A program made the position numbers and the translations under genes. From Negativicutes bacterium (GTDB taxonomy: Bacteria > Bacillota > Negativicutes > UBA1444): DNA of 64,000 nucleotides. Within the stretch, counting starts at the first letter, position 1, and each line of letters begins with the position of its first letter. This document shows, in pieces, positions 2,267 to 19,810 of this stretch. The notes under the pieces are model-generated. The model worked only from the letters and a program-made list of their open reading frames with translations, had not been told where the DNA came from and made no database searches. The stretch is taken from positions 224,001 through 288,000 of the forward strand of contig CAXXIN010000013.1 of the NCBI GenBank assembly GCA_963665275.2, in the 5' to 3' direction.

Positions 2267-2656
2267 TCAACCGCCTATCAATTGCACCCATACTTGCCGG
2301 GTCCGGGGTCCGTCAAATTCGCAAAAGTATATCCCCTGCCACGTTCCCAGACATAACCGCCCGTCTACAATCGGAATGGTCATGGAGCAGCCAACAAGAG
2401 TGCTTTTTACATGAGCAGGGGAATTTCCCTCGCTATGGCGATACGGCAAGTCCGGCACCATCCGTTTCAATGCTGCCAACATATCCGTCACGACATCCGG
2501 GTCGGCGTTTTCATTGATCGTCACCCCAGCTGTGGTATGCGGCACAAAGATCTGGCATAGGCCGTTTTGGATTTTTCCTGCTTCCACGATCTGGCGGACT
2601 TGCTTTGTAATGTCGACAAAATCCTCCGCAGGTGTGTGCAATGTGATTTGTTCCAT
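2267..2656 (-). CDS. yjbQ: YjbQ/UPF0047 family protein
   Basis: Motifs HTTAGVTINENADPDV, H.EGNSPAHVKS and LGTWQGIYFCEFDGPR. Confidence 0.92.
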   Translation of the reverse strand: MEQITLHTPAEDFVDITKQVRQIVEAGKIQNGLCQIFVPHTTAGVTINENADPDVVTDMLAALKRMVPDLPYRHSEGNSPAHVKSTLVGCSMTIPIVDGRLCLGTWQGIYFCEFDGPRTRQVWVQLIGG

Positions 2657-2715: not shown

Positions 2716-3003
2716 TTACCCACCGAATTCTGCATTGCTGAAAACCTGCTGTTGCCAATATTCTCGGGCCCGATCAAGCGAACGGGCCGGATCGGCCATG
2801 TCCTGTATGCGTTCATAGCCAACCTTGGCCAGCCATTGTTTGAACGGTTCCGCTTTGGGCGATGGAATGGACTGGATAATTCGCAACAGCCCTTGAACAT
2901 TCGACGTATCGGTAAGTCGCATTTTCCCGTCCGGCGCTTTCATTTTGAACTGTCGACAAATTGTCGACAGTTCAACTCCATCTTCACTCTTTACCCGCAA
3001 TTT
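2716..3003 (-). pseudogene. Bro-N domain (phage antirepressor-like) gene fragment
   Basis: KMKAPDGKMRLTD...LLRIIQSIPSPKAEPFKQWLAKVG; begins exactly at the intron 3' end with no N-terminus and ends prematurely. Confidence 0.8.
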
Positions 3004-5384
3004 GTTACCCTAAGCCAGCAAGTCGCCCTACTGACTCGGCTTCAAAACCGGACTTGACAGTTTCCCGTCATCCGGCTCCTCAACTTTCCATACTTTCTGA
3101 AGAGCGGCTCCTATTTCGACAATGCTCATGTGCCAGTTGACTGATCTCCCGTTGTCTACCATTCTTACTTTTGCCGATTCGCTCCATGACGGCTACCGGT
3201 TCCGACATCCGGGTAAAGTACAAACCACATATCGCGCAGCATCCCTTTTGTTTCTTGAGAAGCCTTGCGACGTAATTGTCCAGTTCCGGATGCCGCCCCA
3301 TCCGAGTGGCCCAGTACAACCAGTCCCCATCATAAGGACTGCGTTTTCTGTCCACTTTGATGTGACGACGAATCGGTGTTTCACCGTGCAGGTACAGGGT
3401 CGCCCCCTCCGAAGAACGGAATTGCCATCGCTTGCCGTTATGATGCCAATACTTTCGGTAGATCCATTGCTTCGCTTTGTTTGGGTGTCTGCGTTTCATC
3501 CAGGCCCACAGCTTTTCCCACAGAACGTGCTGCAATTTGCTGAACATTCTAGATGAAGCCTGGGTGGAATAGTAGCGACACCAGCCCCGAATAATCGGGT
3601 TGAGTATGCGAATCAGTTTCTCCTGTGTACCGGCTTGGAGGCTGTCGATGACTTCTCCCATTCTATCTTGGTGGCGAAGGACACCATCCTTGCTGGGACG
3701 AATCAGTGGGAGAAACGTTAATCGCTCCTCACTGTTCGTATACCGTCGGGTATGGGTTTGCCCCGCTGGTACCTGTTGTATATGGAAGCCGAGGAAATCA
3801 AATCCCGGCGGCTGCCCGTTGATCGCTTCCAAGGTATGGACGATGCGGGTTTTGGTCGGACTTAATTCCAGACCCATCGTTGCCAGCCATTTCTCCGTAA
3901 CTTTGCGGAGATTATGGATGACTTCCAAGTCGCGATGCATGATCACAAAGTCGTCCGCGTACCGGATGACCCGAGGCCACCACGTCACGTCTTCTCCTGC
4001 AATCATACGGCGATAAGGGATTTGACGCTTGATCTCCTCTTCCAACCCATGCAGCGCGATGTTTGCCAAGAGCGGAGAAATCACCCCTCCTTGCGGCGTC
4101 CCTCGCTCTGCCCGCTGGAAGACGTCTCCTTCCATTACTCCAGCTTTTAACCACCTTCGCACGATGCGACGCACCCGTGGGGCTGCGTCCATCTTATTGA
4201 GTAGCGCGCGGTGGTCGATGCGGTCGAAACATTTTGCAATGTCCGCATCCAGTACATATTTCGGTTGATGAGCAATTTGTCCGAATATGTATTGAATCGC
4301 ATCATGGCAGCCCCTGCCGGGACGGAAGCCGTAGCTGTTTGGTTCAAACCGGGCTTCCCATTCCGGCTCCAGAGCCTGCTTGACCATCGCCTGTGCCGCC
4401 CGGTCTTGAAGGACCGGGATTCCCAGCGCTCGTCGCTCCGTTTTCCCCGGTTTGGGGATGTATATACGGCGCACGGCCTGTGGCACAGGAATCTGCTTGA
4501 GCTGTTTGGCCAACTGGATTTTGTCTTCCTGGCTGATGGAGGCTATCTTATCCACGCCGGGCGTTTTCTTCCCGGCGTTGTCTTGAGCCACGCGCCGCAC
4601 GGCGAGTAACCGGGCGGGCCACGAGGCGATAAGCAGCCGCTGCAGCCGTTGAACATTTCGCTTGTCGCCCTTTAGAGTCGCTTGGTAGATTCGTTTTTGA
4701 AGCTTGAAAACCGCCCGCTCGACTTGCGGCCAGCAAATGGTCTTCCATTCATCCATCGGCAGTTGTGCCGTGTCCATGACATATCCACTCCTACTATCGA
4801 AATACCATTTGGAAAACCGGGGCCACGTCTGCTTATCCGTCGGCTTTCCCGACGGCATTTGCTTCTTGGCCCATCCTGCCCTCCGTTGGCATACGGTTGA
4901 CTGCCTGCTCCGAAAAGAATCCGGAGAGCCAGCGGAGAGTTACCCCGTTCCTGAATATCGTTTTGCGTAAAGGGTAGAACCGCACTATCCACCGGGTTTC
5001 TGTGAGTGTGGAACCGGTCGCAACTCGAGACGCCGGCCTCGTATCCTTGTCCGTTTTGGACCAAGCCCTTCGGTCCGCGTTGGGGGCTTGTTCTGGTTGA
5101 CGGTGGTTCACGCATGCGTTCGCTTTCGCTGTTCTTGCTTTACCTGCTTGCGGGAGTTCCCGAGTCGGACTCCGGGTTACCCGCGTTTCGCCCATGCTGG
5201 CACCGTTCGGTTTGTCACTTCCGCACAGTGTGGGCGATGATGTTCCCTGTCCACCACAGGGGCTGGGAATTGAGTTTCCTCGCGCCCAGCTTCGATATTC
5301 AAGTTGTCGCTGAAGGCCTTCTGACCTTCACTGCCTCCCATCCCTTCAAACCCATGGCTTGAATTTCAGGAGAACGGGTCGCAC
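3004..5384 (-). mobile_element. group II intron (IIB, chloroplast-like class), apparently full length, ~2.38 kb
   Basis: 5' end GTGCGACCCGTTC at 5384; domain V GAGCCGGATGACGGGAAACTGTCAAGTCCGGTTTTG and domain VI ending GGGTAAC at 3004; RT ORF inside; EBS1 CGAGUU (5022-5027) pairs with the exon end AACUUG. Confidence 0.92.
3080..4777 (-). CDS. ltrA: group II intron reverse transcriptase/maturase
   Basis: RT0 (VFKLQKRIYQA, N.GKKTPGVD), GTPQGGVISPLLANIALHG, RYADD, domain X (LNPIIRGWCRYY), degenerate HNH tail; AGGAG RBS before ATG 4777. Confidence 0.95.
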   Translation of the reverse strand: MDTAQLPMDEWKTICWPQVERAVFKLQKRIYQATLKGDKRNVQRLQRLLIASWPARLLAVRRVAQDNAGKKTPGVDKIASISQEDKIQLAKQLKQIPVPQAVRRIYIPKPGKTERRALGIPVLQDRAAQAMVKQALEPEWEARFEPNSYGFRPGRGCHDAIQYIFGQIAHQPKYVLDADIAKCFDRIDHRALLNKMDAAPRVRRIVRRWLKAGVMEGDVFQRAERGTPQGGVISPLLANIALHGLEEEIKRQIPYRRMIAGEDVTWWPRVIRYADDFVIMHRDLEVIHNLRKVTEKWLATMGLELSPTKTRIVHTLEAINGQPPGFDFLGFHIQQVPAGQTHTRRYTNSEERLTFLPLIRPSKDGVLRHQDRMGEVIDSLQAGTQEKLIRILNPIIRGWCRYYSTQASSRMFSKLQHVLWEKLWAWMKRRHPNKAKQWIYRKYWHHNGKRWQFRSSEGATLYLHGETPIRRHIKVDRKRSPYDGDWLYWATRMGRHPELDNYVARLLKKQKGCCAICGLYFTRMSEPVAVMERIGKSKNGRQREISQLAHEHCRNRSRSSESMES

Positions 5385-5457
5385 CAAGTTTGATCAAGAG
5401 CCAAGCGGCCACTGCAATCGGGAATCCCACCTGGGATATGAGCTGCGCCCAGTCCAT
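5385..5457 (-). pseudogene. yvrJ: YvrJ-family small membrane protein, 5' exon interrupted by the intron
   Basis: Not in the ORF track. MDWAQLISQVGFPIAVAAWLLIKL| matches the YvrJ signature GFPIAVA..LL and follows DUF2922, as is usual for the family. Confidence 0.8.
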
Positions 5458-5461
5458 CGGA

Positions 5462-5674
5462 CTACGCCAGCACCGTGGTGTCCTGAGTCAGGATGATCGG
5501 ATCGACTGCCGAGATGAGATCTCCGCCGCTCGATGCGAACAGGTTTCGGGCGATGATCATGGTTTGTGTGGCAACGGCTTCCGCTTTGGTGAGGTTTTCT
5601 TTTGGATTGGCGATGAGGATGTTCACATCCTTGCCTGCCGCGTTCTTGAAGCCGAGTTTGGCTGTTCTAGTCAT
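5462..5674 (-). CDS. DUF2922 family protein
   Basis: 70 aa, L.F.NAAGK.V.I.I.NPKENLT..E...M.II..NLF..SGGDL; AGGAGG RBS. Confidence 0.85.
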   Translation of the reverse strand: MTRTAKLGFKNAAGKDVNILIANPKENLTKAEAVATQTMIIARNLFASSGGDLISAVDPIILTQDTTVLA

Positions 5675-5710
5675 CGGTTGCTCCTCCTTTCGCCAGATTT
5701 TTTACCGGCG

Positions 5711-5935
5711 TTACTCGCCGATCAGGTTGGCGCTGTCGGTGCGAACGATCGCAACGAGCGATTTCGCCTGCAGTCCCGCGAGACTGGCGCCGACATCATA
5801 GATGTCCTGGTCGGTGGCGGTCGGTTTCACGTTGGAAAAGCTCAGCGTCTTGAAGACGTTGGCCCCGGTGGCGCTGACGCCATTCACGACTTTGATGCCG
5901 ATCCGGGATTCCTGGGGTGCTTTCGTAACAGCCAT
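5711..5935 (-). CDS. DUF1659 family protein
   Basis: 74 aa, G....G..VFKT.SFSNVKP.ATDQDIYDVG..LAGLQ; AAGGAGG RBS. Confidence 0.85.
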   Translation of the reverse strand: MAVTKAPQESRIGIKVVNGVSATGANVFKTLSFSNVKPTATDQDIYDVGASLAGLQAKSLVAIVRTDSANLIGE

Positions 5936-6047
5936 GAGGATCCCTCCTTCCTGGGTAACGCGGATTTCGCGCTCCCAAACATTCTATGAAAAACGGGACT
6001 CAGTGCCCCGATTTTCCGGTTGTGCCCACATCCCTCTTTTTTTTCCT

Positions 6048-6172
6048 TCCGGCGGTTCAGCAAGGTCCAGATACAAGGCACGGCGAGGCTTGTACTGCGC
6101 CGCGTACAGGTCGTACGCAAGCAGTGCAAACACAGTCGTAACGCCGTAGATGGGCCTTGCTGGGCCGCCGGA
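6048..6172. repeat. 125-bp long imperfect palindrome, MITE-like
   Basis: Arms TCCGGCGGTTCAGCAAGGTCCA (6048-6069) and TGGGCCTTGCTGGGCCGCCGGA (6151-6172); inner CGTAC...GTACG hairpin. Confidence 0.6.
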
Positions 6173-6175
6173 CAA

Positions 6176-6327
6176 ACAAAAAAGGACACGCCATGGCGAC
6201 GTGTCCCGAAACGGGGATGGAGGTACTATATGGCAGCCGCAAGGTAATTAGTCCTGCGGGTGAGCCCGGTATCGTGCGCCCCATCCCCATAGAGCCTATG
6301 TAGTTTTCAAGGTTTGTTTTTGTCTAC
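6176..6327 (-). ncRNA. candidate structured small RNA
   Basis: TTCACG-N16-TATAAT promoter (6334-6361), closing stem GGGGATGG/CCATCCCC, inner hairpin CCGCAGG..CCTTGCGG, own terminator; no credible ORF. Confidence 0.45.
6178..6207 (-). terminator. intrinsic terminator
   Basis: GGGACACGTCGCCATGGCGTGTCC followed by TTTTTT on the minus strand. Confidence 0.75.
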
Positions 6328-6346
6328 AGTCTTATTATACGTCGGT

Positions 6347-6919
6347 TTATTCGTCCGTGAACGCCTCCGGCGGAAATTTTTTCAGTTCTTTTTCATAGTC
6401 ATCCACTGCCACCGCGATGGCGGCTCCCATCCGCCATTGCTCCAGCGAATCGGTGAGCATTTCTCGGTCCACCACATTGGATATAAAGCCTCCTTCGACG
6501 AGCACCGCCGGGCAGTCAGTCTCCCTCAGCACCTGGAAGCTCGCTTCCTTGACGCCCCGGTCGTCGGTAAGCATGGCGTCGGTCATGCAGAACTGGATGC
6601 AGCGGGCCAGCTGCCGCCCTTTGATACTGCCGGGATAGTAGTACGTTTCTGTCCCGTCGGCATCTAGGTTCTCCGAACTGTTACAGTGGATGCTGATGAA
6701 CAGGTCGGCGCCCCACTGGTTGGCCCGTTCCGCCCGAAAGGCCAGCCCATCGCTTTCGATGTGCTTGGATCGAGTCAGAACGACCGCGTGTCCGCGCAGC
6801 TTGAGCTCCGCTCTGGCAAAGCGGGCGATGTACCAGTTGATGTCGGCTTCATTGAAACCGCCGGCGCACGCCCCAGGTTCCACGGGGCCGCTATGCCCCG
6901 GATCAAGTACGATTTTCAT
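6347..6919 (-). CDS. N-acetylmuramoyl-L-alanine amidase (Amidase_3), catalytic domain only
   Basis: IVLDPGHSG, E..IN, FISIHCN and PAVLVEGGFISN zinc motifs; GGGAGG RBS; no signal peptide or binding domain. Confidence 0.92.
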   Translation of the reverse strand: MKIVLDPGHSGPVEPGACAGGFNEADINWYIARFARAELKLRGHAVVLTRSKHIESDGLAFRAERANQWGADLFISIHCNSSENLDADGTETYYYPGSIKGRQLARCIQFCMTDAMLTDDRGVKEASFQVLRETDCPAVLVEGGFISNVVDREMLTDSLEQWRMGAAIAVAVDDYEKELKKFPPEAFTDE

Positions 6920-6955
6920 AACACAACCTCCCGCATATTTTTTTATTCCTGTCGA

Positions 6956-7089
6956 TTTATCCATCGCACAGCCTGTAAGACCCCGCCCTCTTAGGCCTTC
7001 GGATAAACAGGCTGTAGTTCGAAGTAAATTCGACTAAGATTCAGGTGGCGTTAAAACACCATCTGAATCAAGTCTACATTTATTTACCG
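6956..7089. repeat. 134-bp palindromic MITE-like element, copy 1
   Basis: Identical to 45932-46065; hairpins ACAGCCTGT..ACAGGCTGT, TCGAAGTAAATTCGA and GATTCAGGTGG..CCATCTGAATC; TTTAT at both ends. Confidence 0.9.
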
Positions 7090-7605
7090 GTTTCCCAGAT
7101 TTCCTGCCAAGGCGCGAATTACGGCGCCCATCCCGGATAGCGCGAGCACTTTCTCGTTTTCCTGGTTTTCCCGCCGGCGGCTGCGCATCGACTCATAGAG
7201 CCGTAGGAAATGAGCCCGGTCCGCTTCGGGATTTTCTCCCCTACAGAGCTGCGGCCAGCCAATCGACTGCGCCGCCCGCTTAACCGTATCGCAGCTGTAT
7301 TTCGGCGCCCTATACGGTCCGATCTCTTGAATCAACCTGCCAACTTCCTCCCAGGCTTCGGCGGCAGTCGGCAACTTTTCATTCCGTGGATCAAGTTCAT
7401 TCGCCGCCGCCACAACCTGGGCCACGCTGGGGAAGAACTGTGATTCGCGGCACACCTTGATGATCGCCGCCTTGGCTACGATGACATCGAGATCGGAGAG
7501 CATCAACGTCCAGGCCTCGACAATCGGCCGAGGATCCCGGGCCTGCATTGCAGGATAGGAGCTGGATGCCATCGCCACCAGTGCCAAGGTTTCCTGTCGG
7601 GTCAT
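7084..7605 (-). CDS. phage replicative helicase loader/inhibitor (G39P-like)
   Basis: MTRQE...SYP...W..ML.D......A.......S.FFPSVAQV followed by TA.EAW; ATGA overlap with the rep stop. Confidence 0.8.
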   Translation of the reverse strand: MTRQETLALVAMASSSYPAMQARDPRPIVEAWTLMLSDLDVIVAKAAIIKVCRESQFFPSVAQVVAAANELDPRNEKLPTAAEAWEEVGRLIQEIGPYRAPKYSCDTVKRAAQSIGWPQLCRGENPEADRAHFLRLYESMRSRRRENQENEKVLALSGMGAVIRALAGNLGNR

Positions 7606-8462
7606 GCCGGCGCGCCCTGACGCGCCATCTCAGCCAACTTGTCAATGAAAGTTTGCGGGCGCCCAGTCTGCGGCTGCGGACTGGCCCGTTCCTCCAGGTA
7701 GCGGGAAATCACCCAGGTCGTGATGACTTTATAATCATCCCTGTATTCGCTGCATTTCCCCGGATGATTGGTTTTGTAAGCATCCAAAAGAGCGATGATC
7801 CGCTCTGCCCCGATCGCGCCATGCTCCAGGCACAGCCGTTCCCGCTCGTTCGGTTTCAAATAGACGGTATCCGCCTGCCGTTCGACTCCTTCGCGCAGCA
7901 TGGACGGGCAGGCTGTCTCCCGGTTTCGTCTGTTGCTCTGTTTTGGTTTCTCTCCTTCCCTCTCCTTTGCTTTAGTCTCTTCTGCTTTCCTTTCCTTTAC
8001 TTTGTCGGTTTCTGTCGGAATAGTTGCCGTTTCGGCGGAGTTATTCGCACAGAAACTCGCCGAAGGTTCATTTTCCAACGGTTTTTGCATACCGAAACCC
8101 GGCTTTTGCGGGGCGGCGCTTTTACGCCGATCAAACACCGGCTCCAGATTGCTGACGAAATGATCGCTCCAAACGATTTTCTCCGCCCACAATTCGGCAT
8201 CAATGGCTTCAATCTCTGACAGTTTGTCCAGAATGGCGGTGGCGACGGTTTCTGTCACCCGAGCCTTGGACAGCAGGTATTCCCAATCCGCCGAGCTGTT
8301 GCAGTTGTATGAAAAATCATTGGAGTCCCCCAGCAGCTCCAGCAGCTTGAACCAAAATGCATATCCGTCATTACCCCAGCGGGCTTCCAGAATCGCGATA
8401 GTTTTGCCGGTATGGGTCACATGAGGAAAATAGTCCACCTTCACTTTTGTCGGTCGTGCCAT
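7602..8462 (-). CDS. phage replication initiator (DUF4373 / Lin1244-Lin1753-like N-terminus)
   Basis: MARPTK.KVDYFPH...LEARWGNDGYAFWFKLLE; KE-rich spacer; C-terminal helical domain ending Y.DDY..I..WV; GGGAGG RBS. Confidence 0.82.
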   Translation of the reverse strand: MARPTKVKVDYFPHVTHTGKTIAILEARWGNDGYAFWFKLLELLGDSNDFSYNCNSSADWEYLLSKARVTETVATAILDKLSEIEAIDAELWAEKIVWSDHFVSNLEPVFDRRKSAAPQKPGFGMQKPLENEPSASFCANNSAETATIPTETDKVKERKAEETKAKEREGEKPKQSNRRNRETACPSMLREGVERQADTVYLKPNERERLCLEHGAIGAERIIALLDAYKTNHPGKCSEYRDDYKVITTWVISRYLEERASPQPQTGRPQTFIDKLAEMARQGAPA

Positions 8463-8668
8463 GTTGCGCCTCCCGGATCTATCAAAAATACCTGTGCGAC
8501 AGTTTTTCCCAGCGCCGCCGAAATTTCCCGCATCGTCTCCGCCCCCGGATTCCGCCGCTGTCCTTTGGCCAGCATGGAAACGTATTGCGCGGTAGTTCCT
8601 GCTAGTTCCGCAATGTACCGGTAGGTCAGTCCTTGCCGCACACGCCAATAATCAATCCTATTCTTCAC
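8441..8668 (-). CDS. XRE/Cro-like HTH regulator
   Basis: KNRI..WR...GLT...IAELAGTT.QYVS.L.KG.RRNP; GGAGG RBS and GTG start. Confidence 0.85.
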   Translation of the reverse strand: MKNRIDYWRVRQGLTYRYIAELAGTTAQYVSMLAKGQRRNPGAETMREISAALGKTVAQVFLIDPGGATWHDRQK

Positions 8669-8700
8669 ATGTTCACCTCCCAATTTATAACAATGAATTC

Positions 8701-8729
8701 ATACTATCACGTTGGTTTTGTTCAAGCAA
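8701..8729 (-). promoter_or_regulatory. sigmaA-type promoter for the cro-rep operon
   Basis: TTGCTT-N17-TAGTAT with an extended TG. Confidence 0.5.
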
Positions 8730-8821
8730 AACCGCTAACCACAACATAATTACCCCTCACAATGTCACACAATCGACGATAATCAAATACGTTTCAAATT
8801 ATTAAAATTACGCCCATTTAC

Positions 8822-8851
8822 TTGAAGATAAGTAAACTAATAGTTTATAAT
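8822..8851 (+). promoter_or_regulatory. repressor promoter with palindromic operator
   Basis: TTGAAG-N18-TATAAT; palindrome TAAACTA-A-TAGTTTA (8833-8847) between the boxes. Confidence 0.6.
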
Positions 8852-8893
8852 GTGATTGATCCCCTACTGGTAATAGTAAAGGAGAAGGTGAAC

Positions 8894-9289
8894 ATGTTCG
8901 GTGAAAACTTGAGACGAATTATGAAGAAAAAAAATATAACTTCTCGATATTTGGCAGCGAAAATCGGCGTCACGGAAACGTATATCAGCTATTTATTGAC
9001 CGGCAAAAAGAAACCCAGCTTAAAAATCGTGGAAACCCTGACCGAGTTTCTCGACGTGAGCGTTTCTGATTTGATCACGAAAAAAGAACCTCCGCCTAAT
9101 GTAAAGCTGGAGGCTCTAGCCCAAAAATATGAGTCGGTACTTTTGGCAATGGAATCGATGAGGCCTGAGCTTGTCGCGGAGTTGTCTTCTCGAATCGAGG
9201 CCGCTGCCTGTTTGTTCCCGCGCACGGATGTATCAGCGAAAACGGACCAGGGCGGCGCCGCCTATTTGCGCAAGAAAAAAGTTGGCTGA
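8894..9289 (+). CDS. XRE family CI-like repressor (no peptidase domain)
   Basis: MFGENLRR.M....IT...LA.KIGVTE.YIS....GKK.PSL; divergent from the cro-like gene. Confidence 0.88.
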   Translation: MFGENLRRIMKKKNITSRYLAAKIGVTETYISYLLTGKKKPSLKIVETLTEFLDVSVSDLITKKEPPPNVKLEALAQKYESVLLAMESMRPELVAELSSRIEAAACLFPRTDVSAKTDQGGAAYLRKKKVG

Positions 9290-9305: not shown

Positions 9306-10004
9306 ATGAAGTTGTTTCAAATCAGATTTTGGGTTATAGCAGTATTGGTTGCCGCAACTTTCGCATTGGGTCTCATGGAACAAGCTCAAGCGGCTCCTTC
9401 GAAAGCGGGGCAAACCATTACTTTGGAAAAACTGCTCAAGCAAAGTGCCACCCCTGTATATTTTAAGATGCCGGATAGTTTTTTCTACAAATTGACCATC
9501 GAAGGCGCTCCGATTGCTACCAAAGCGCAATGTGTCGCTTATTTACGTAAAACGAATCCTTTCCCCCTTATCTCAGTAAGTGTTGAGAAACTGGTCGATA
9601 TTTATTACCGGGAAGGCCAGAAAGAAAATGTGCGGCCGGACTTGGCGTTTGCACAGGCATTGTTGGAAACAGGGCATTTCAGTTATGGCGGGGATGTTTA
9701 CCCCCAGCAAAACAATTATGCCGGGATTGGCGCTACCGGAAACAAAGTTAAGGGAGCCTATTTCCCAACTGCAGAAATCGGGGTGCGAAGTCAGATACAA
9801 CACCTTCTGGCTTACGCTTCGGAACGACGGCCCCGCGAAAAAATCGTTGATCCGCGCTATGAGCTGCTGGCCAAGATTCCGGCAAAGCATGGAAAAATAA
9901 AGACGTGGATGGCACTTGGGGGTAATTGGGCGGTCCCGGGGGCAAATTACGGCGTCAACATCTTTAAAATACATAGTCGAATTCTAAATATGCCTGTGCT
10001 ATGA
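9306..10004 (+). CDS. secreted glucosaminidase-domain (GH73-like) peptidoglycan hydrolase
   Basis: Signal peptide; EG..E.VRPD.AFAQALLETG.F.YGGDV...QNNYAGIGA, HL.AYA, VDPR and L.G.WA.PG..YG. Confidence 0.85.
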   Translation: MKLFQIRFWVIAVLVAATFALGLMEQAQAAPSKAGQTITLEKLLKQSATPVYFKMPDSFFYKLTIEGAPIATKAQCVAYLRKTNPFPLISVSVEKLVDIYYREGQKENVRPDLAFAQALLETGHFSYGGDVYPQQNNYAGIGATGNKVKGAYFPTAEIGVRSQIQHLLAYASERRPREKIVDPRYELLAKIPAKHGKIKTWMALGGNWAVPGANYGVNIFKIHSRILNMPVL

Positions 10005-15723: not shown

Positions 15724-15993
15724 TCACCGAGTATATATTTCGCGTCGATGTCCGATATTCAGCACCAGGACGATAATGCGATCATCCTCGATGGAGCAAA
15801 TTATTCGGTAATCTCCCACGCGATAACGCCATAATCCGGATAGGTTAGCTTTTAGAGGCTCGCCAAAGTGACGGGGGTTTTTGCAACCGTCAATTCGTTC
15901 TGACAAATAGTCCAATAGTCGTTTTTGCGTGGCTCGGTCCAAGGCCGCTAGTTGTTTTTGCGCAGTAGGACTGATCTCAACAGTCCAGCCCAA
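15724..15993 (-). CDS. relE: RelE/ParE family toxin
   Basis: A.KQL..LD...Q.R, NPR..G.PL...LSGLWRYRVGDYRIIC.I.D....VLVL.IGHRREIY. Confidence 0.93.
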   Translation of the reverse strand: MGWTVEISPTAQKQLAALDRATQKRLLDYLSERIDGCKNPRHFGEPLKANLSGLWRYRVGDYRIICSIEDDRIIVLVLNIGHRREIYTR

Positions 15994-16189
15994 GCTCGCG
16001 CCTCACTTCCGACAGTGATTTTGTACCATTCATATCGCGCAAGGACTTTTCAGCTAGGGCTGTGTCCTCCAAGTCTTCAAAATAGCGGACGAGGGCTTCC
16101 CTTACAATCGCGCTGCGGTTTCTTTTTTGTGCTTTTGCAGTTGCCTCCAAAACATCTTCCAGTTCTCGATCCATTCGTATGGCCAACAT
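15977..16189 (-). CDS. ribbon-helix-helix antitoxin (RelB-like)
   Basis: MLAIRMDRELE..LE..AK...RNRS.IVREAL..Y.EDLED...A...SL.EV..ELGL; overlaps the toxin start. Confidence 0.88.
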   Translation of the reverse strand: MLAIRMDRELEDVLEATAKAQKRNRSAIVREALVRYFEDLEDTALAEKSLRDMNGTKSLSEVRRELGLDC

Positions 16190-16293
16190 GATTGCTCTCC
16201 TCCTCCTACTCCGTATAACAAAGTATAACATCTGGGTGATGAAAAAAAGCAATAAATCGCATTTTAAAAAGAGCTTAATGCGTTATCGCCCAA

Positions 16294-16831: not shown

Positions 16832-19810
16832 TTAAAGAGGATTCAATTTACCATTGGCTAACTCGAACTGCGCATTATAAATTGGCATAATGAACGTCGT
16901 CACATCAAGGGACGTAGCCTGCGACACTAACCGTATCGTGTGCCCGGGTAACGCATGAAACGTCCCGGCATTCATGTACGAAATGGTCGTTAACTTCGAC
17001 GCTATCGTGTCGTCCCATATGTCTATACCAAGATTAATGCTATCTTTATTGTATAGGTAAATTGTTGGGAATGGGCTGAAAATCGCAGAAACTGACGTGT
17101 TCGCCGTCGGCTTGCTAAAAGTCTTGATGCAACCATCATATTCCGTTGTAGCTGCTGCCGTTATGACCCCATTCACAACAAGGCCTGAGAAGTAATAGTT
17201 TCCTGTATGTGCAATCGTATAGGTGACCGACCCCTCCGAGGTGCACGTCGTGCTGCCGCTGGGGGATATCGTACCGCCCGTACTCGCGCTGCTATAAAAT
17301 ATGTATGATTCAGCGCTGAGCTTGACGCTGGCGCTGCCGCCGCTGCTTGTAACGGCGACCGTGTCCGTGCCGCCGCTGGTCACATAGCCTGTGGCGCTGG
17401 CCGTGAAGTTATAGTTCCCCACTGGAATCCCGGTGAAGGTCGCCACCCCGGAGGTGGTCGTCGTCGTCTGCACCGCCGAGCCTACCGCGAGACTGACTGT
17501 CGCGGTTGTTAGCGGGGTTGAGCTGCCTGATGGATAGACGGTGATGGTCACCGTGCCGCTTTGGCGGGCGAGGGCGACGGCGACCGGGGTGGTCGTCCCC
17601 CCGGCGATGGTAACGCTGAGCGTTTTACTTACGTATCCGTCGAGCGCCACAGCGAAGTCGTAGGTTCCCACGGTCAGGCCGGTAAAGGTCGCCACACCGG
17701 AGACCGCTGTCTTGGTCGTACCGCTCGGCGATTGGGTCACGACGGCATTGAGCGCATTGCCGCCGGTATCGGTAATGGTGAAGCTGGCATTGCCGATCTG
17801 ATTCGTCAGCGCGATCGTGGCGGTTGCCGTTGCGCCGCTGGCGATGGTGACTCCGGCGGTCATCGTCGGATACCCGGTCTTACTCGCCGTGAACGTCTGC
17901 GTTCCTGTCGGCAGGTTGCCAAGGACGGCGACGCCGCCCGGATCGGTCACCACCGATTGAATCACGCTGCCGACGGTGACGCTCACTGTCGCCCCGGAGA
18001 TTACATTCGTTCCGTCAGTGACTTTGATCGCGGCGCCCCCGGCGCCGCTGCCGGACATCACCACATAACTCGTAAGGTTGCCGCCTCCCGTGGGTACGGT
18101 GACGGTGCTGGAGGTGATGGTTTGGGTCCCGGAAGCCGCGGTGAAGATATACGAACCGGCGGGCAGATTGCCGAAGCTCGCCGTACCGGCGGCGCCAGTG
18201 GTCCGTGTGATGCTGTAGCTGCTGACGGCGGCGTATGCCGTTTTGACTCCGAATAGGAGATCGAAGAAGTTTTTCTCGCCTTGAGCGGAAGAGCCGCTGG
18301 ACTGGATCGTGACGATCGCCCCGGCGATCGGGTTGCCGGAGGCGTCGGTGACGGTGACGGTAATTCCGCCGCCGGTAATCGAGAGGGTAATCGCCGCCTG
18401 CGCGGTCTGGTCCTTGACGACCGTTACCGCGCTGCTGTCGGCGGATAGGTTGAAGTACGTGGCTTTCACGGTATAACTGCCAACGGTAAGCCCGCTGATG
18501 GTTCCCTTGCCGGAGGCATCGGAGGTAACGGCAGTTCCTACGGCGTTGCCGTTTTGGTAAGCCTGCAGGCTAACGCCCTGCAGGGCTCCGCCGCTGGTGT
18601 TGGTGACGCTCACGGCGATGGAGCCGGTATAGGCGACGAACTTCGTCCATTTCTCGGTTTTGATGTCGTTTTCCCGTTCTACTTTCTGCAGCATTTTATG
18701 TGAGACATCGTTCGCAGACCGCAGCGCCAGATCCGAGGGATTGACCGGCGTGGCTTTGGCGGTGAAGCGGTCGGTGAGTTTGGCGGCGTTGACCAAGATG
18801 GGTTCGCCGATGGGTTTGCCGTTTTGGTATAGCTGGACCAACACGGGGATGGGTTTGCCGTCTATTGTCGGCAGGCTGCCCCAGAAGGCGGGACCTAACG
18901 CATCGGCGAGTTGGTAGGAGATTTTGCCGTAGAGGTTGCCGCTGGCAAGGTTGGAGCTTTGGTAGCCGATCTCCACTGCCACGCGTGGAGTGAGCTGCAT
19001 GTTGCTGCGCAAGCGAAAGCCGTTTTCGTCGGGGTTGTGCTCGTTGTCCCAGTGATAGCCCCCGGCGTAGACTTTCCACCACGGGGCTTTGGGCAGGGAG
19101 GTTCCCAGTTCGTAGTCGAAACCTTCGACGGCCCGGATGTAGGAATAGAGAATACCGCTGGATTGATACTCCTGTCCGGTTTGTTTCTCCCCGGAGAGGG
19201 GACGGTAATAGTTGAAGCGGTATTCCATTTGTTTGTGGAAGTATTCCGCGCCGAAGCCGACGCGCTGGAGATCGTACTGGAAACCGTAATCGTAGAAGAG
19301 ATTGAGGCCGACGAGGGAGGTCTTGTCGGAGGAAAGTTTGCGCCAGCCGAAGCCGAGGTTGGCGGTGCTGCCGTTATCTGCACTGAGGTGGGCGTAGCGT
19401 CCCTGCCAGAACCAGAGGCTGCCGTCTTTCCCGACTTCTCCGAAGGGTTGGACGGTTTCGAAAGAATAGAGGGGCCGGTTGTCTTGATCAAATCGGAGCT
19501 GGATGTCCGTGGTCTTCAGCCAGGAGGGTCCGCCTTTTTGGCCGCGCTGGAGGTAGTAGGCGAGGAGGCGGTTGCCGAAGCTATTCAGCTTTTCCTGATC
19601 ACTGATGCGTTTGCCGCTGGCGGAGGAGTCTGATGCGGCATCAGAAGAGGCTGCCTTCTCCCCCGTTGTCTCCGCAGTGGTCTTGTCTACCGTAAAAGTA
19701 ATGGGATCGGCACTGTCTGCCGCCGAAGCCGCAGCTAGGCCGGGATTGGCAAGCATCAGTAGAATGAGCAGCTGCGCCAATCGCTGTTTGAGGTTTCTGG
19801 AGATCTCCAA
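16832..19810 (-). CDS. inverse autotransporter (intimin/invasin-type, type Ve) adhesin with Ig-like repeats
   Basis: Signal peptide; barrel motifs TANLGFGWR, G.N.FYDY, R.GFGAEYF, Y.PLS, GFD.E.G and VERENDI; about five T/S/G-rich carboxypeptidase-regulatory-like repeats; InlB-B-repeat-like domain near the C-terminus; TTG start after a GGGGAGG RBS. Confidence 0.88.
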   Translation of the reverse strand: MEISRNLKQRLAQLLILLMLANPGLAAASAADSADPITFTVDKTTAETTGEKAASSDAASDSSASGKRISDQEKLNSFGNRLLAYYLQRGQKGGPSWLKTTDIQLRFDQDNRPLYSFETVQPFGEVGKDGSLWFWQGRYAHLSADNGSTANLGFGWRKLSSDKTSLVGLNLFYDYGFQYDLQRVGFGAEYFHKQMEYRFNYYRPLSGEKQTGQEYQSSGILYSYIRAVEGFDYELGTSLPKAPWWKVYAGGYHWDNEHNPDENGFRLRSNMQLTPRVAVEIGYQSSNLASGNLYGKISYQLADALGPAFWGSLPTIDGKPIPVLVQLYQNGKPIGEPILVNAAKLTDRFTAKATPVNPSDLALRSANDVSHKMLQKVERENDIKTEKWTKFVAYTGSIAVSVTNTSGGALQGVSLQAYQNGNAVGTAVTSDASGKGTISGLTVGSYTVKATYFNLSADSSAVTVVKDQTAQAAITLSITGGGITVTVTDASGNPIAGAIVTIQSSGSSAQGEKNFFDLLFGVKTAYAAVSSYSITRTTGAAGTASFGNLPAGSYIFTAASGTQTITSSTVTVPTGGGNLTSYVVMSGSGAGGAAIKVTDGTNVISGATVSVTVGSVIQSVVTDPGGVAVLGNLPTGTQTFTASKTGYPTMTAGVTIASGATATATIALTNQIGNASFTITDTGGNALNAVVTQSPSGTTKTAVSGVATFTGLTVGTYDFAVALDGYVSKTLSVTIAGGTTTPVAVALARQSGTVTITVYPSGSSTPLTTATVSLAVGSAVQTTTTTSGVATFTGIPVGNYNFTASATGYVTSGGTDTVAVTSSGGSASVKLSAESYIFYSSASTGGTISPSGSTTCTSEGSVTYTIAHTGNYYFSGLVVNGVITAAATTEYDGCIKTFSKPTANTSVSAIFSPFPTIYLYNKDSINLGIDIWDDTIASKLTTISYMNAGTFHALPGHTIRLVSQATSLDVTTFIMPIYNAQFELANGKLNPL

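Follow-up and report, generated by a model that had tools for sequence, protein, structure and literature searches.

What kind of element lies between positions 5385 and 9289 of a 64,000-nucleotide stretch of a Negativicutes genome (UBA1444 lineage; assembly GCA_963665275.2, contig CAXXIN010000013.1, forward strand 224,001 to 288,000; the whole stretch is called the window and its contig C13)? A divergent repressor/Cro switch, a phage-type replication initiator (Rep) and a helicase loader are followed by a bare amidase, a structured RNA and the genes for DUF1659, DUF2922 and YvrJ, three orphan families, of which DUF1659 and DUF2922 are named in only 2 papers of the literature searched. A preliminary description, made from the sequence alone, saw here a compact unit of about 4 kb whose late module has the logic of a minimal virus, a satellite or a domesticated particle. 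Relatives of the locus show that the unit is not compact. The family probably consists of virion-less, phage-derived, integrative islands that resemble satellites and carry defence genes. Judged from its sequence, the window copy is an integrase-less, intron-truncated member that should be unable to excise by itself.

Intact copies and their cargo

The genome holds three copies of the element, in the window and on contigs C7 and C14, which differ in Rep and in the CI repressor and have a common late block. C7 shares window positions 3003-6946 at 98.5% identity (58 differences, none of them in the intron that interrupts yvrJ); it has a different Rep, SSB (single-stranded DNA-binding)-like gene and CI, and retains the yvrJ 3′ exon and a 116-residue open reading frame (ORF). 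The copy on C14 has no intron and is intact, with the order tRNA-Lys, integrase, CI, Xis, helix-turn-helix (HTH) Rep, ankyrin, Bro/ANT, amidase, the two DUF genes, yvrJ and ORF. Beyond the ORF lies cargo with type I restriction-modification (RM), CBASS and more, and a perfect 45-bp repeat of the tRNA-Lys end is present 31.8 kb away. In six further copies, tRNA-end repeats of 22-23 nt are 22.6-32.3 kb apart. Such attachment (att) repeats were not found within 9 kb of the core because the cargo is longer. Contig C11 of this genome has an empty site where two related genomes (G007 and G003) hold a copy.

The order of the element is (integrase)-CI-Cro/Xis-swappable Rep/loader-amidase-leader RNA-DUF1659-DUF2922-yvrJ-small ORF, followed by cargo, and intact copies are integrative islands of 23-32 kb. 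Their integrase stands beyond CI, at the end opposite yvrJ and the cargo. In the window CI is followed by 16 bases and then by an unrelated gene, at the position of the integrase in intact copies, and no direct repeat bounding this copy was found. The preliminary description was right that an integrase is missing (PF00589 and PF07508 have no match on the window contig), but its suggestion of a loss at the intron junction fails, since that junction is at the other end.

The six att-bounded copies were gene-called end to end, which gave 140 ORFs. Matches in PADLOC at 1e-15 were obtained for 25 of 35 picked cargo proteins, and the defence types comprise RM-I/II/III, CBASS, Gabija, Kiwa, Druantia, Lamassu and Upx. 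None of 73 proteins scanned against PHROG (59 from the six att-bounded copies, with core and evident RM/transport genes left out) matched a head, tail or connector family, nor a packaging-redirecting gene of the terS, ppi or sid type. Terminase_6N, the one terminase family searched for, is absent from the genome. Six att-bounded islands with anti-phage cargo and no head or tail match make a deleted-prophage stump unlikely, an outcome that the preliminary description had itself reckoned with. Replicon, amidase and trio without virion genes instead form a recurring design, present in 34 of 83 loci from the class and in the six att-bounded copies.

Several related arrangements were seen beside these. 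A second island lies at tRNA-Gly on C14 (C14:94121-108240) with integrase, CI, Cro, Xis, a DnaC-like gene and cargo; its early part is organized alike, but the late block (amidase and DUF trio) is missing. A distinct sub-type in this genus (L008, L013, L017, L019, L023) reads XRE-Xis-Rep-DnaC-like, RNA, DUFs, yvrJ and small ORF, with the amidase downstream rather than upstream. A pair of 72-residue genes recurs in the cargo of several elements (L062:5897-6323; L061:18738-19164; L097; L098), and one of the two we take by eye to be SymE-like. One element (L045:1190-6927, L052) has porin-like, nitrogenase-like and ATP-binding cassette (ABC) genes as metabolic cargo, behind a leader that by eye resembles a cobalamin riboswitch.

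Genomic contexts of DUF1659 and DUF2922

DUF1659 matched 9 of 13 genomes of the family and 171 of 201 genomes of the class Negativicutes. The 83 class loci compared here comprise 23 family loci and 60 chosen among the 150 class matches listed. Sorting by script gave 34 Rep-type loci, 21 with sigma only, 2 with sigma and amidase, 12 with amidase only and 14 with neither; the sigma test used misses some divergent sigma genes. Among the Rep-type loci 29 have an amidase, 12 have an integrase in view and none has an adjacent sigma gene. They contain at least four initiator families and retain amidase-DUF-DUF-yvrJ. Ten of them sit behind tRNA genes with an integrase, and in at least five host families the same join of CI/Rep to the late block is seen with differing initiators. 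The sigma-only loci are resident; most of them are flanked by an ABC-F gene and recD2.

DUF2922 matched 83 of 151 sampled Bacillota genomes and is single-copy in 70 of these. In the 30 best-scoring phylum loci, inspected over 1.5 kb on each side, DUF1659 is adjacent in all 30, sigma is present in 6, Amidase_2 in 6 and a Rep-like gene in 1; ComK gave a weak match in 2, and about 9 ComK look-alikes were recognized by eye. The co-occurrence of trio and Rep for which the preliminary description proposed to look is common in the class sample (34/83), but across the phylum the DUF pair is mostly found without Rep (1/30); this goes part of the way towards the result that the preliminary description had named as refuting it. 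Since the pair is phylum-wide mostly single-copy and without adjacent Rep, the trio can be regarded as a portable module. Three clostridial/bacillus plasmids hold it, one with an amidase, one with an M15 peptidase, integrase and Rep, and one with sigma. A tree requires at least four switches between mobile and resident contexts and gives no direction (76 rows, 144 columns, hand labels). About one third of the phylum loci (L216-L245) have a ComK-like gene after yvrJ, possibly a third control mode, and in several DUF2922 and yvrJ are separated by the gene of a small CxxC protein.

Shallow searches for relatives of DUF1659 were negative in IMG/VR (queried with the window protein or with alignment A1), in 50,697 phage records, and in viral loci matched by an RNA pattern (88 stretches, 80 with flanks). 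PHROG families exist for both DUFs, so some (pro)phages carry them.

The copy in the window

Profile matches were taken from Pfam and PHROG scans of the window proteins. All genes named in the preliminary description were found in their places and in the order given there. From left to right the features are as follows (RBS, ribosome-binding site; RT, reverse transcriptase).

2267-2656, minus strand: YjbQ (UPF0047), likely cargo; within the insertion in G007 and G003
2716-3003, minus strand: inner piece of a Bro-N gene, joined to the 3′ end of the intron
3004-5384, minus strand: group II intron inserted in yvrJ, encoding an RT/maturase (3080-4777)
5385-5457, minus strand: yvrJ 5′ exon, 24 codons forming a hydrophobic helix (PF12841 8e-7; phrog_4898 holin 6.7e-4)
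5462-5674, minus strand: DUF2922 (SroB family), 70 residues (PF11148 1.5e-15)
5711-5935, minus strand: DUF1659 (SroA family), 74 residues (PF07872 1.2e-23)
5936-6177, minus strand: variable 245-nt spacer in which a second hairpin precedes the DUF1659 RBS
6178-6306, minus strand: conserved structured RNA including the intrinsic terminator 6207-6183 (fold z -3.55)
6334-6361, minus strand: sigma-70-like promoter at the amidase stop (10/12 consensus; position kept in relatives)
6347-6919, minus strand: bare, endolysin-like Amidase_3, 190 residues (PF01520 2.6e-43; phrog_435 endolysin 8.6e-50)
6955-7085: dispersed 130-bp hairpin-rich host repeat in the loader/amidase gap, not part of the core
7084-7605, minus strand: helicase loader (G39P/P-like), 173 residues (Inhibitor_G39P PF11417 1.3e-5; phrog_2289, phrog_109)
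7602-8462, minus strand: phage-type Rep, 286 residues (Lin1244_N 9.4e-7; phrog_2562 1.2e-26)
8441-8668, minus strand: Cro-like HTH protein, 75 residues (HTH_3 2.8e-10)
8714-8847: divergent control region; short inverted repeats at 8714-8733, 8817-8836 and 8833-8847
8894-9289, plus strand: CI-like XRE repressor, 131 residues (HTH_3 2.6e-12, PHROG repressors; start with RBS, frame open from 8822)

The three inverted repeats are candidate operators. The 130-bp repeat recurs in this genome at unrelated intergenic positions, four times in full and once split. With its two hairpins it resembles miniature inverted-repeat transposable elements (MITE) or repetitive extragenic palindromes (REP), and five or six copies are present here (L026-L029 included) and one in G007 (L009:10815-10937). 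The spacer 5936-6177 matches only four other loci, and a 63-residue ORF in it, without a Pfam or PHROG match, is probably no gene. A glucosaminidase gene (9306-10004) was ruled out as a core gene, being found in 1 of 12 relatives and unlinked. Elsewhere in the window are an N-terminal FeoB fragment (592-750), a toxin-antitoxin pair of ParE and ribbon-helix-helix (RHH) type (15724-16252) and an inverse-autotransporter-like gene (16832-19810). The latter, together with a porin-like gene in the window and the genes present in relatives, indicates the class Negativicutes, which is also the label of one close homologue.

The leader RNA

The RNA before DUF1659 follows a sigma-70-like promoter that overlaps the amidase stop, and it comprises about 100 nt of nested stems, with a long closing stem and inner stems carrying a conserved CAUA, and then the terminator. 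The small RNA of the preliminary description is thereby borne out: promoter (6361-6334), terminator, fold score and covariation in relatives all support it. Promoter and terminator scans alone do not exceed shuffles. An RNA model (R1) made from 14 family sequences gave 32 matches at E<0.003 in 88 sources, all of them upstream of DUF1659, in L006 with an insertion between. Of the 34 Rep-type loci 28 have a match, of the 26 others 4, and of the 23 sigma-type loci none; in this genome R1 finds just the three copies. Of the alignment cells 97% are paired, against 42-52% in a slid control, and both sides have changed in 26 of 29 pairs; this alignment is model-fitted and leans toward its own structure, and kin are not independent.

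Rfam contains no family that matches 6178-6306 at threshold, and R1 gave nothing credible in the 30 phylum loci and the three plasmid loci. Inspection by eye revealed no antiterminator pairing that is conserved across RNA groups. Because RNA and sigma are mutually exclusive among the sampled loci, the data suggest that they may be two ways of gating one operon. In sigma-type loci (e.g. L035, L040, L053, L057) a conserved GGAATGTAT motif immediately precedes the DUF1659 RBS and may be a promoter element of the dedicated sigma.

The late proteins

Both DUF proteins are predicted to fold as beta-beta-alpha-beta, with a model pLDDT (predicted local distance difference test) of 67 for DUF1659 and 82 for DUF2922. 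Ratios of nonsynonymous to synonymous substitution (dN/dS) of 0.19-0.46 and 0.13-0.34, respectively, indicate purifying selection, and both are almost uncharged overall (mean net charge +0.1 and -1.1). Prediction of the DUF1659-DUF2922 complex scored 0.48, against 0.00 for the best control, with contacts that agree 100% across runs and pLDDT of at least 77. This mark is reached by 116 of 157 solved pairs and by 2 of 215 mismatched pairs; among these, only 18 solved pairs plus both mismatches lie at or below 0.60. In Staphylococcus aureus, the available part of the source reports that SroA and SroB are positive in a two-hybrid assay and that the self-pairs are negative (10.1101/2022.10.19.512975). 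A heterodimer is therefore likely, by analogy with this pair and with weak support from the prediction, and the preliminary description was probably correct in treating the two DUFs as partners. Positive support for its co-polymerising coat or filament subunits was not obtained.

In fold searches with the monomer models no match rose above noise for either protein. DUF2922 had a best Z of 4.9 (PurS, root-mean-square deviation (rmsd) 3.4 over 52 aligned residues) and a best BFVD E of 0.023, and DUF1659 had no Foldseek match at 1e-3 (best Z 4.7 for T4 Dmd, rmsd 2.8 over 51 aligned). Small phage inhibitors (Dmd, T7 Gp2, phi29 p56, p6) recur among the weak fold rows, which is a lead only. The two profiles do not align (probability 0.3%), so paralogy of the two DUFs is not shown. 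A search of the Atlas returned only DUF1659 clusters.

The Amidase_3 catalytic domain runs from residue 3 to near the end of the protein, which has neither an export signal nor a binding domain; compared with the C7 copy its dN is 0.011 and its dS 0.242. The loader, compared with two relatives, has a dN/dS of about 0.15. YvrJ consists of one hydrophobic helix and a polar tail. Its family match agrees with the third tiny gene of the preliminary description, but in the window it is an intron-cut 5′ exon and not a whole gene. A conserved acidic ORF of 110-140 residues always follows yvrJ in this family (L025:13348-13773 and 13 other loci) and has no Pfam, PHROG, PADLOC or Atlas match; other families have smaller counterparts at this place.

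The intron and the left junction

The intron has the features of group II: a GUGCG start, domains 5 and 6, an RT/maturase and pairing of exon-binding (EBS) with intron-binding (IBS) sites. Candidate EBS1 and EBS2 pair with yvrJ at 6/6 and 4/6, respectively, where the EBS positions were inferred by eye and from L008. C7 has an identical intron, and one that is 86.6% identical occupies the same yvrJ position in the divergent G003 copy (L008:10697-13075), from which yvrJ, a multi-copy element gene, appears to serve as homing site. The yvrJ 3′ exon is missing from the window copy, whereas it is intact on C7 and the intact 64-residue form is present on C14; splicing in the window copy would thus yield 30 residues and not 64.

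The element extends to the left of 5385 as cargo remnants, namely the Bro-N fragment and YjbQ. The fragment is 91% identical to an intact 286-residue gene in G019. Bro-N is whole in two further genomes, where it comes after the post-yvrJ ORF (ORF118) in G009 and before YjbQ in G003. In G019 the sequence before the junction pairs with candidate EBS1 and EBS2 at 4/6 and 6/6, and pairing as good is found at 188 of 1,134,906 sampled genome positions. The simplest reading is that a second intron inserted in Bro-N and that the two introns then recombined. The intron/Bro-N junction is present on contigs of two samples, and with identical introns on C7 and C13 the assignment of left and right halves rests on the assembly. 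Contig depth, which is not a copy number, roughly doubles across the block in common with C7, matches that of the flank over Rep/CI and stays flat over the C14 copy; it gave no sign of amplification. A second, unrelated RT (30% identity) has four copies (C13:27419, C7:160952, C7:284371, C3:73373) and probably belongs to another group II intron.

Possible roles of the late block

To the island we add, at about an even chance, that the late block is a holin/amidase release module with the DUF heterodimer as its payload. CI would keep the element silent, and upon induction intact copies would excise and replicate. The Cro-Rep transcript would supply the amidase, the short RNA would come from a constitutive promoter of its own, and DUF1659, DUF2922 and YvrJ would be expressed only by read-through past the RNA terminator. 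YvrJ, acting as a one-helix holin like TpeE or BhlA, could then release the signal-less amidase together with the abundant DUF pair. In resident chromosomal copies a dedicated sigma would replace the RNA gate.

Several observations weigh against this. The RNA promoter comes after the amidase gene, which therefore escapes the RNA gate. The holin role of YvrJ, already proposed in the preliminary description, has the weak PHROG match in its favour (phrog_4898, 6.7e-4), but the 64-residue C14 form has no match at 1e-5. In 21 of the 83 class loci sigma-DUF-DUF-(YvrJ) has no amidase nearby, so the trio needs no local hydrolase. The island itself is affected by the 22 of 34 Rep-type loci without an integrase in view, many visibly decayed, by doubtful Rep calls at L011, L072 and L073, and by a class sample that was hand-picked from top matches with multi-copy genomes over-represented. 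Finally, SroA alone stabilises sigS mRNA and SroB, or both together, do not, as far as the available text of the source extends (10.1101/2022.10.19.512975), so that a regulator fits as well as a payload.

The latter finding underlies an explanation that we hold to be rather unlikely, in which the island is the same and the DUF pair is an intracellular switch of effector and neutraliser, SroA/SroB-like or toxin-antitoxin-like. It would stabilise an RNA or stall the host after low-level read-through of the RNA terminator, in the service of addiction, abortive infection or lysis-gene control. The amidase-free loci and a cargo rich in defence agree with this. Type III toxin-antitoxin loci are laid out as promoter, RNA, terminator and genes, an order that the element resembles. 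However, PADLOC matched neither DUF, nor YvrJ or ORF118, the near-zero net charge shows no basic RNA-binding bias, and it would be left unexplained why YvrJ and hydrolases of three families repeatedly join the DUF pair.

A minimal tail-less virus is improbable. In it, DUF heterodimers would polymerise as coat or filament round the element DNA, YvrJ would anchor or extrude the product, and the wall would be opened by the amidase. An obligate hetero-pair, strong RBSs and a late position after replication genes would suit it, as would the keeping of the late genes alone while Rep, CI and loader are swapped, the multi-copy spread and three switch-like control modes. Against this, no packaging ATPase or terminase was found in intact copies, these vary in length (23-32 kb) and freely in cargo, the DUF subunits are not basic, and most phylum copies have no adjoining replicon. 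Equally improbable is its widest form, in which undescribed tail-less, self-releasing elements that ferry defence islands use the heterodimer as coat or filament subunit, the leader RNA is a late switch or assembly signal, and the sigma- or ComK-like-driven resident copies in more than half of the sampled Bacillota, S. aureus sroAB included, are domesticated particles. Least credible, and very improbable, is a tailed prophage stump with deleted structural genes, or a host operon beside a decaying early module. It accords with the damage to the window copy (no integrase or att, cut yvrJ, Bro-N fragment), with the prophage families of Rep, loader, CI and amidase, and with the commonness of the pair as a resident operon. 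It is contradicted by the same short join, which is met again in five or more host families next to various initiators, flanked by intact att repeats and with no virion remnant, by dN/dS well below 1 for amidase, loader and DUFs, and by an RNA that covaries across families.

Comparison with known systems

No description of the element family was found in the literature searched, which excluded subscription papers and bioRxiv supplements. With temperate tailed prophages of Bacillota (lambda/SPP1-type) it shares CI/Cro, an initiator with a G39P-like loader, an endolysin-type amidase and, in some copies, a Bro/ANT antirepressor; unlike in these, no terminase, portal, capsid or tail genes were found.

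The available part of PMC9527704 describes the UviA-UviB-amidase-Bcn5 locus as sigma, holin, amidase and exported product, and TpeE as a one-helix holin. The element likewise has a one-helix holin-like protein and a signal-less amidase, with sigma in resident loci. Compared with these clostridial loci, genes for a bacteriocin or a large toxin are missing and the pair of 70 and 74 residues is the candidate payload; YvrJ, a putative holin, belongs to another Pfam family.

SigS-sroAB of S. aureus, as far as the accessible text goes, has the same tandem DUF1659-DUF2922, strong RBSs and tightly gated expression (10.1101/2022.10.19.512975; PMC13192611); for sroAB a 1000-fold SigS induction after DNA damage is described (10.1101/2022.10.19.512975). 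The hetero-interaction was seen there in a two-hybrid assay; here it is likely, with weak support from prediction (0.48 vs 0.00). Different from sroAB, the pair here belongs to a mobile replicon, is accompanied by YvrJ and amidase, and is probably gated by an RNA/terminator rather than sigma.

The islands also resemble satellites of the phage-inducible chromosomal island (PICI) and phage-inducible chromosomal minimalist island (PICMI) type (PMC10803314). Common to both are site-specific integration with direct repeats, an integrase beside divergently oriented regulators, a replication module of their own, the lack of virion genes and a hot spot for defence cargo. Integrase and direct repeats occur in the element family, not in the window copy. 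The source gives AlpA, primase (DUF3987/DUF5906) and fis as mandatory for PICMI, which also lack packaging-redirecting genes (PMC10803314). This gene set is not found here, where Rep is Lin1244_N/phrog_2562; phage O/DnaD-type initiators and loaders stand in place of the PICMI primase, and tRNA sites of islands of 23-32 kb in place of fis. Unlike PICI and PICMI, the islands have their own amidase, a holin-like gene, the DUF pair and the leader RNA. To our knowledge satellites are not usually described with a wall hydrolase of their own. By their gene content, then, the islands should work like PICI/PICMI, lack the genes that define PICMI, and add a hydrolase module and an RNA absent from Rfam. 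They carry RM, CBASS, Gabija, Kiwa, Druantia and Lamassu systems, and present satellite definitions would miss them. For experiments the intact C14 copy is suited, the window copy being a poor subject, and a release module gated by sigma or by a new structured RNA would give testable roles to the three orphan families and to SroAB of S. aureus.

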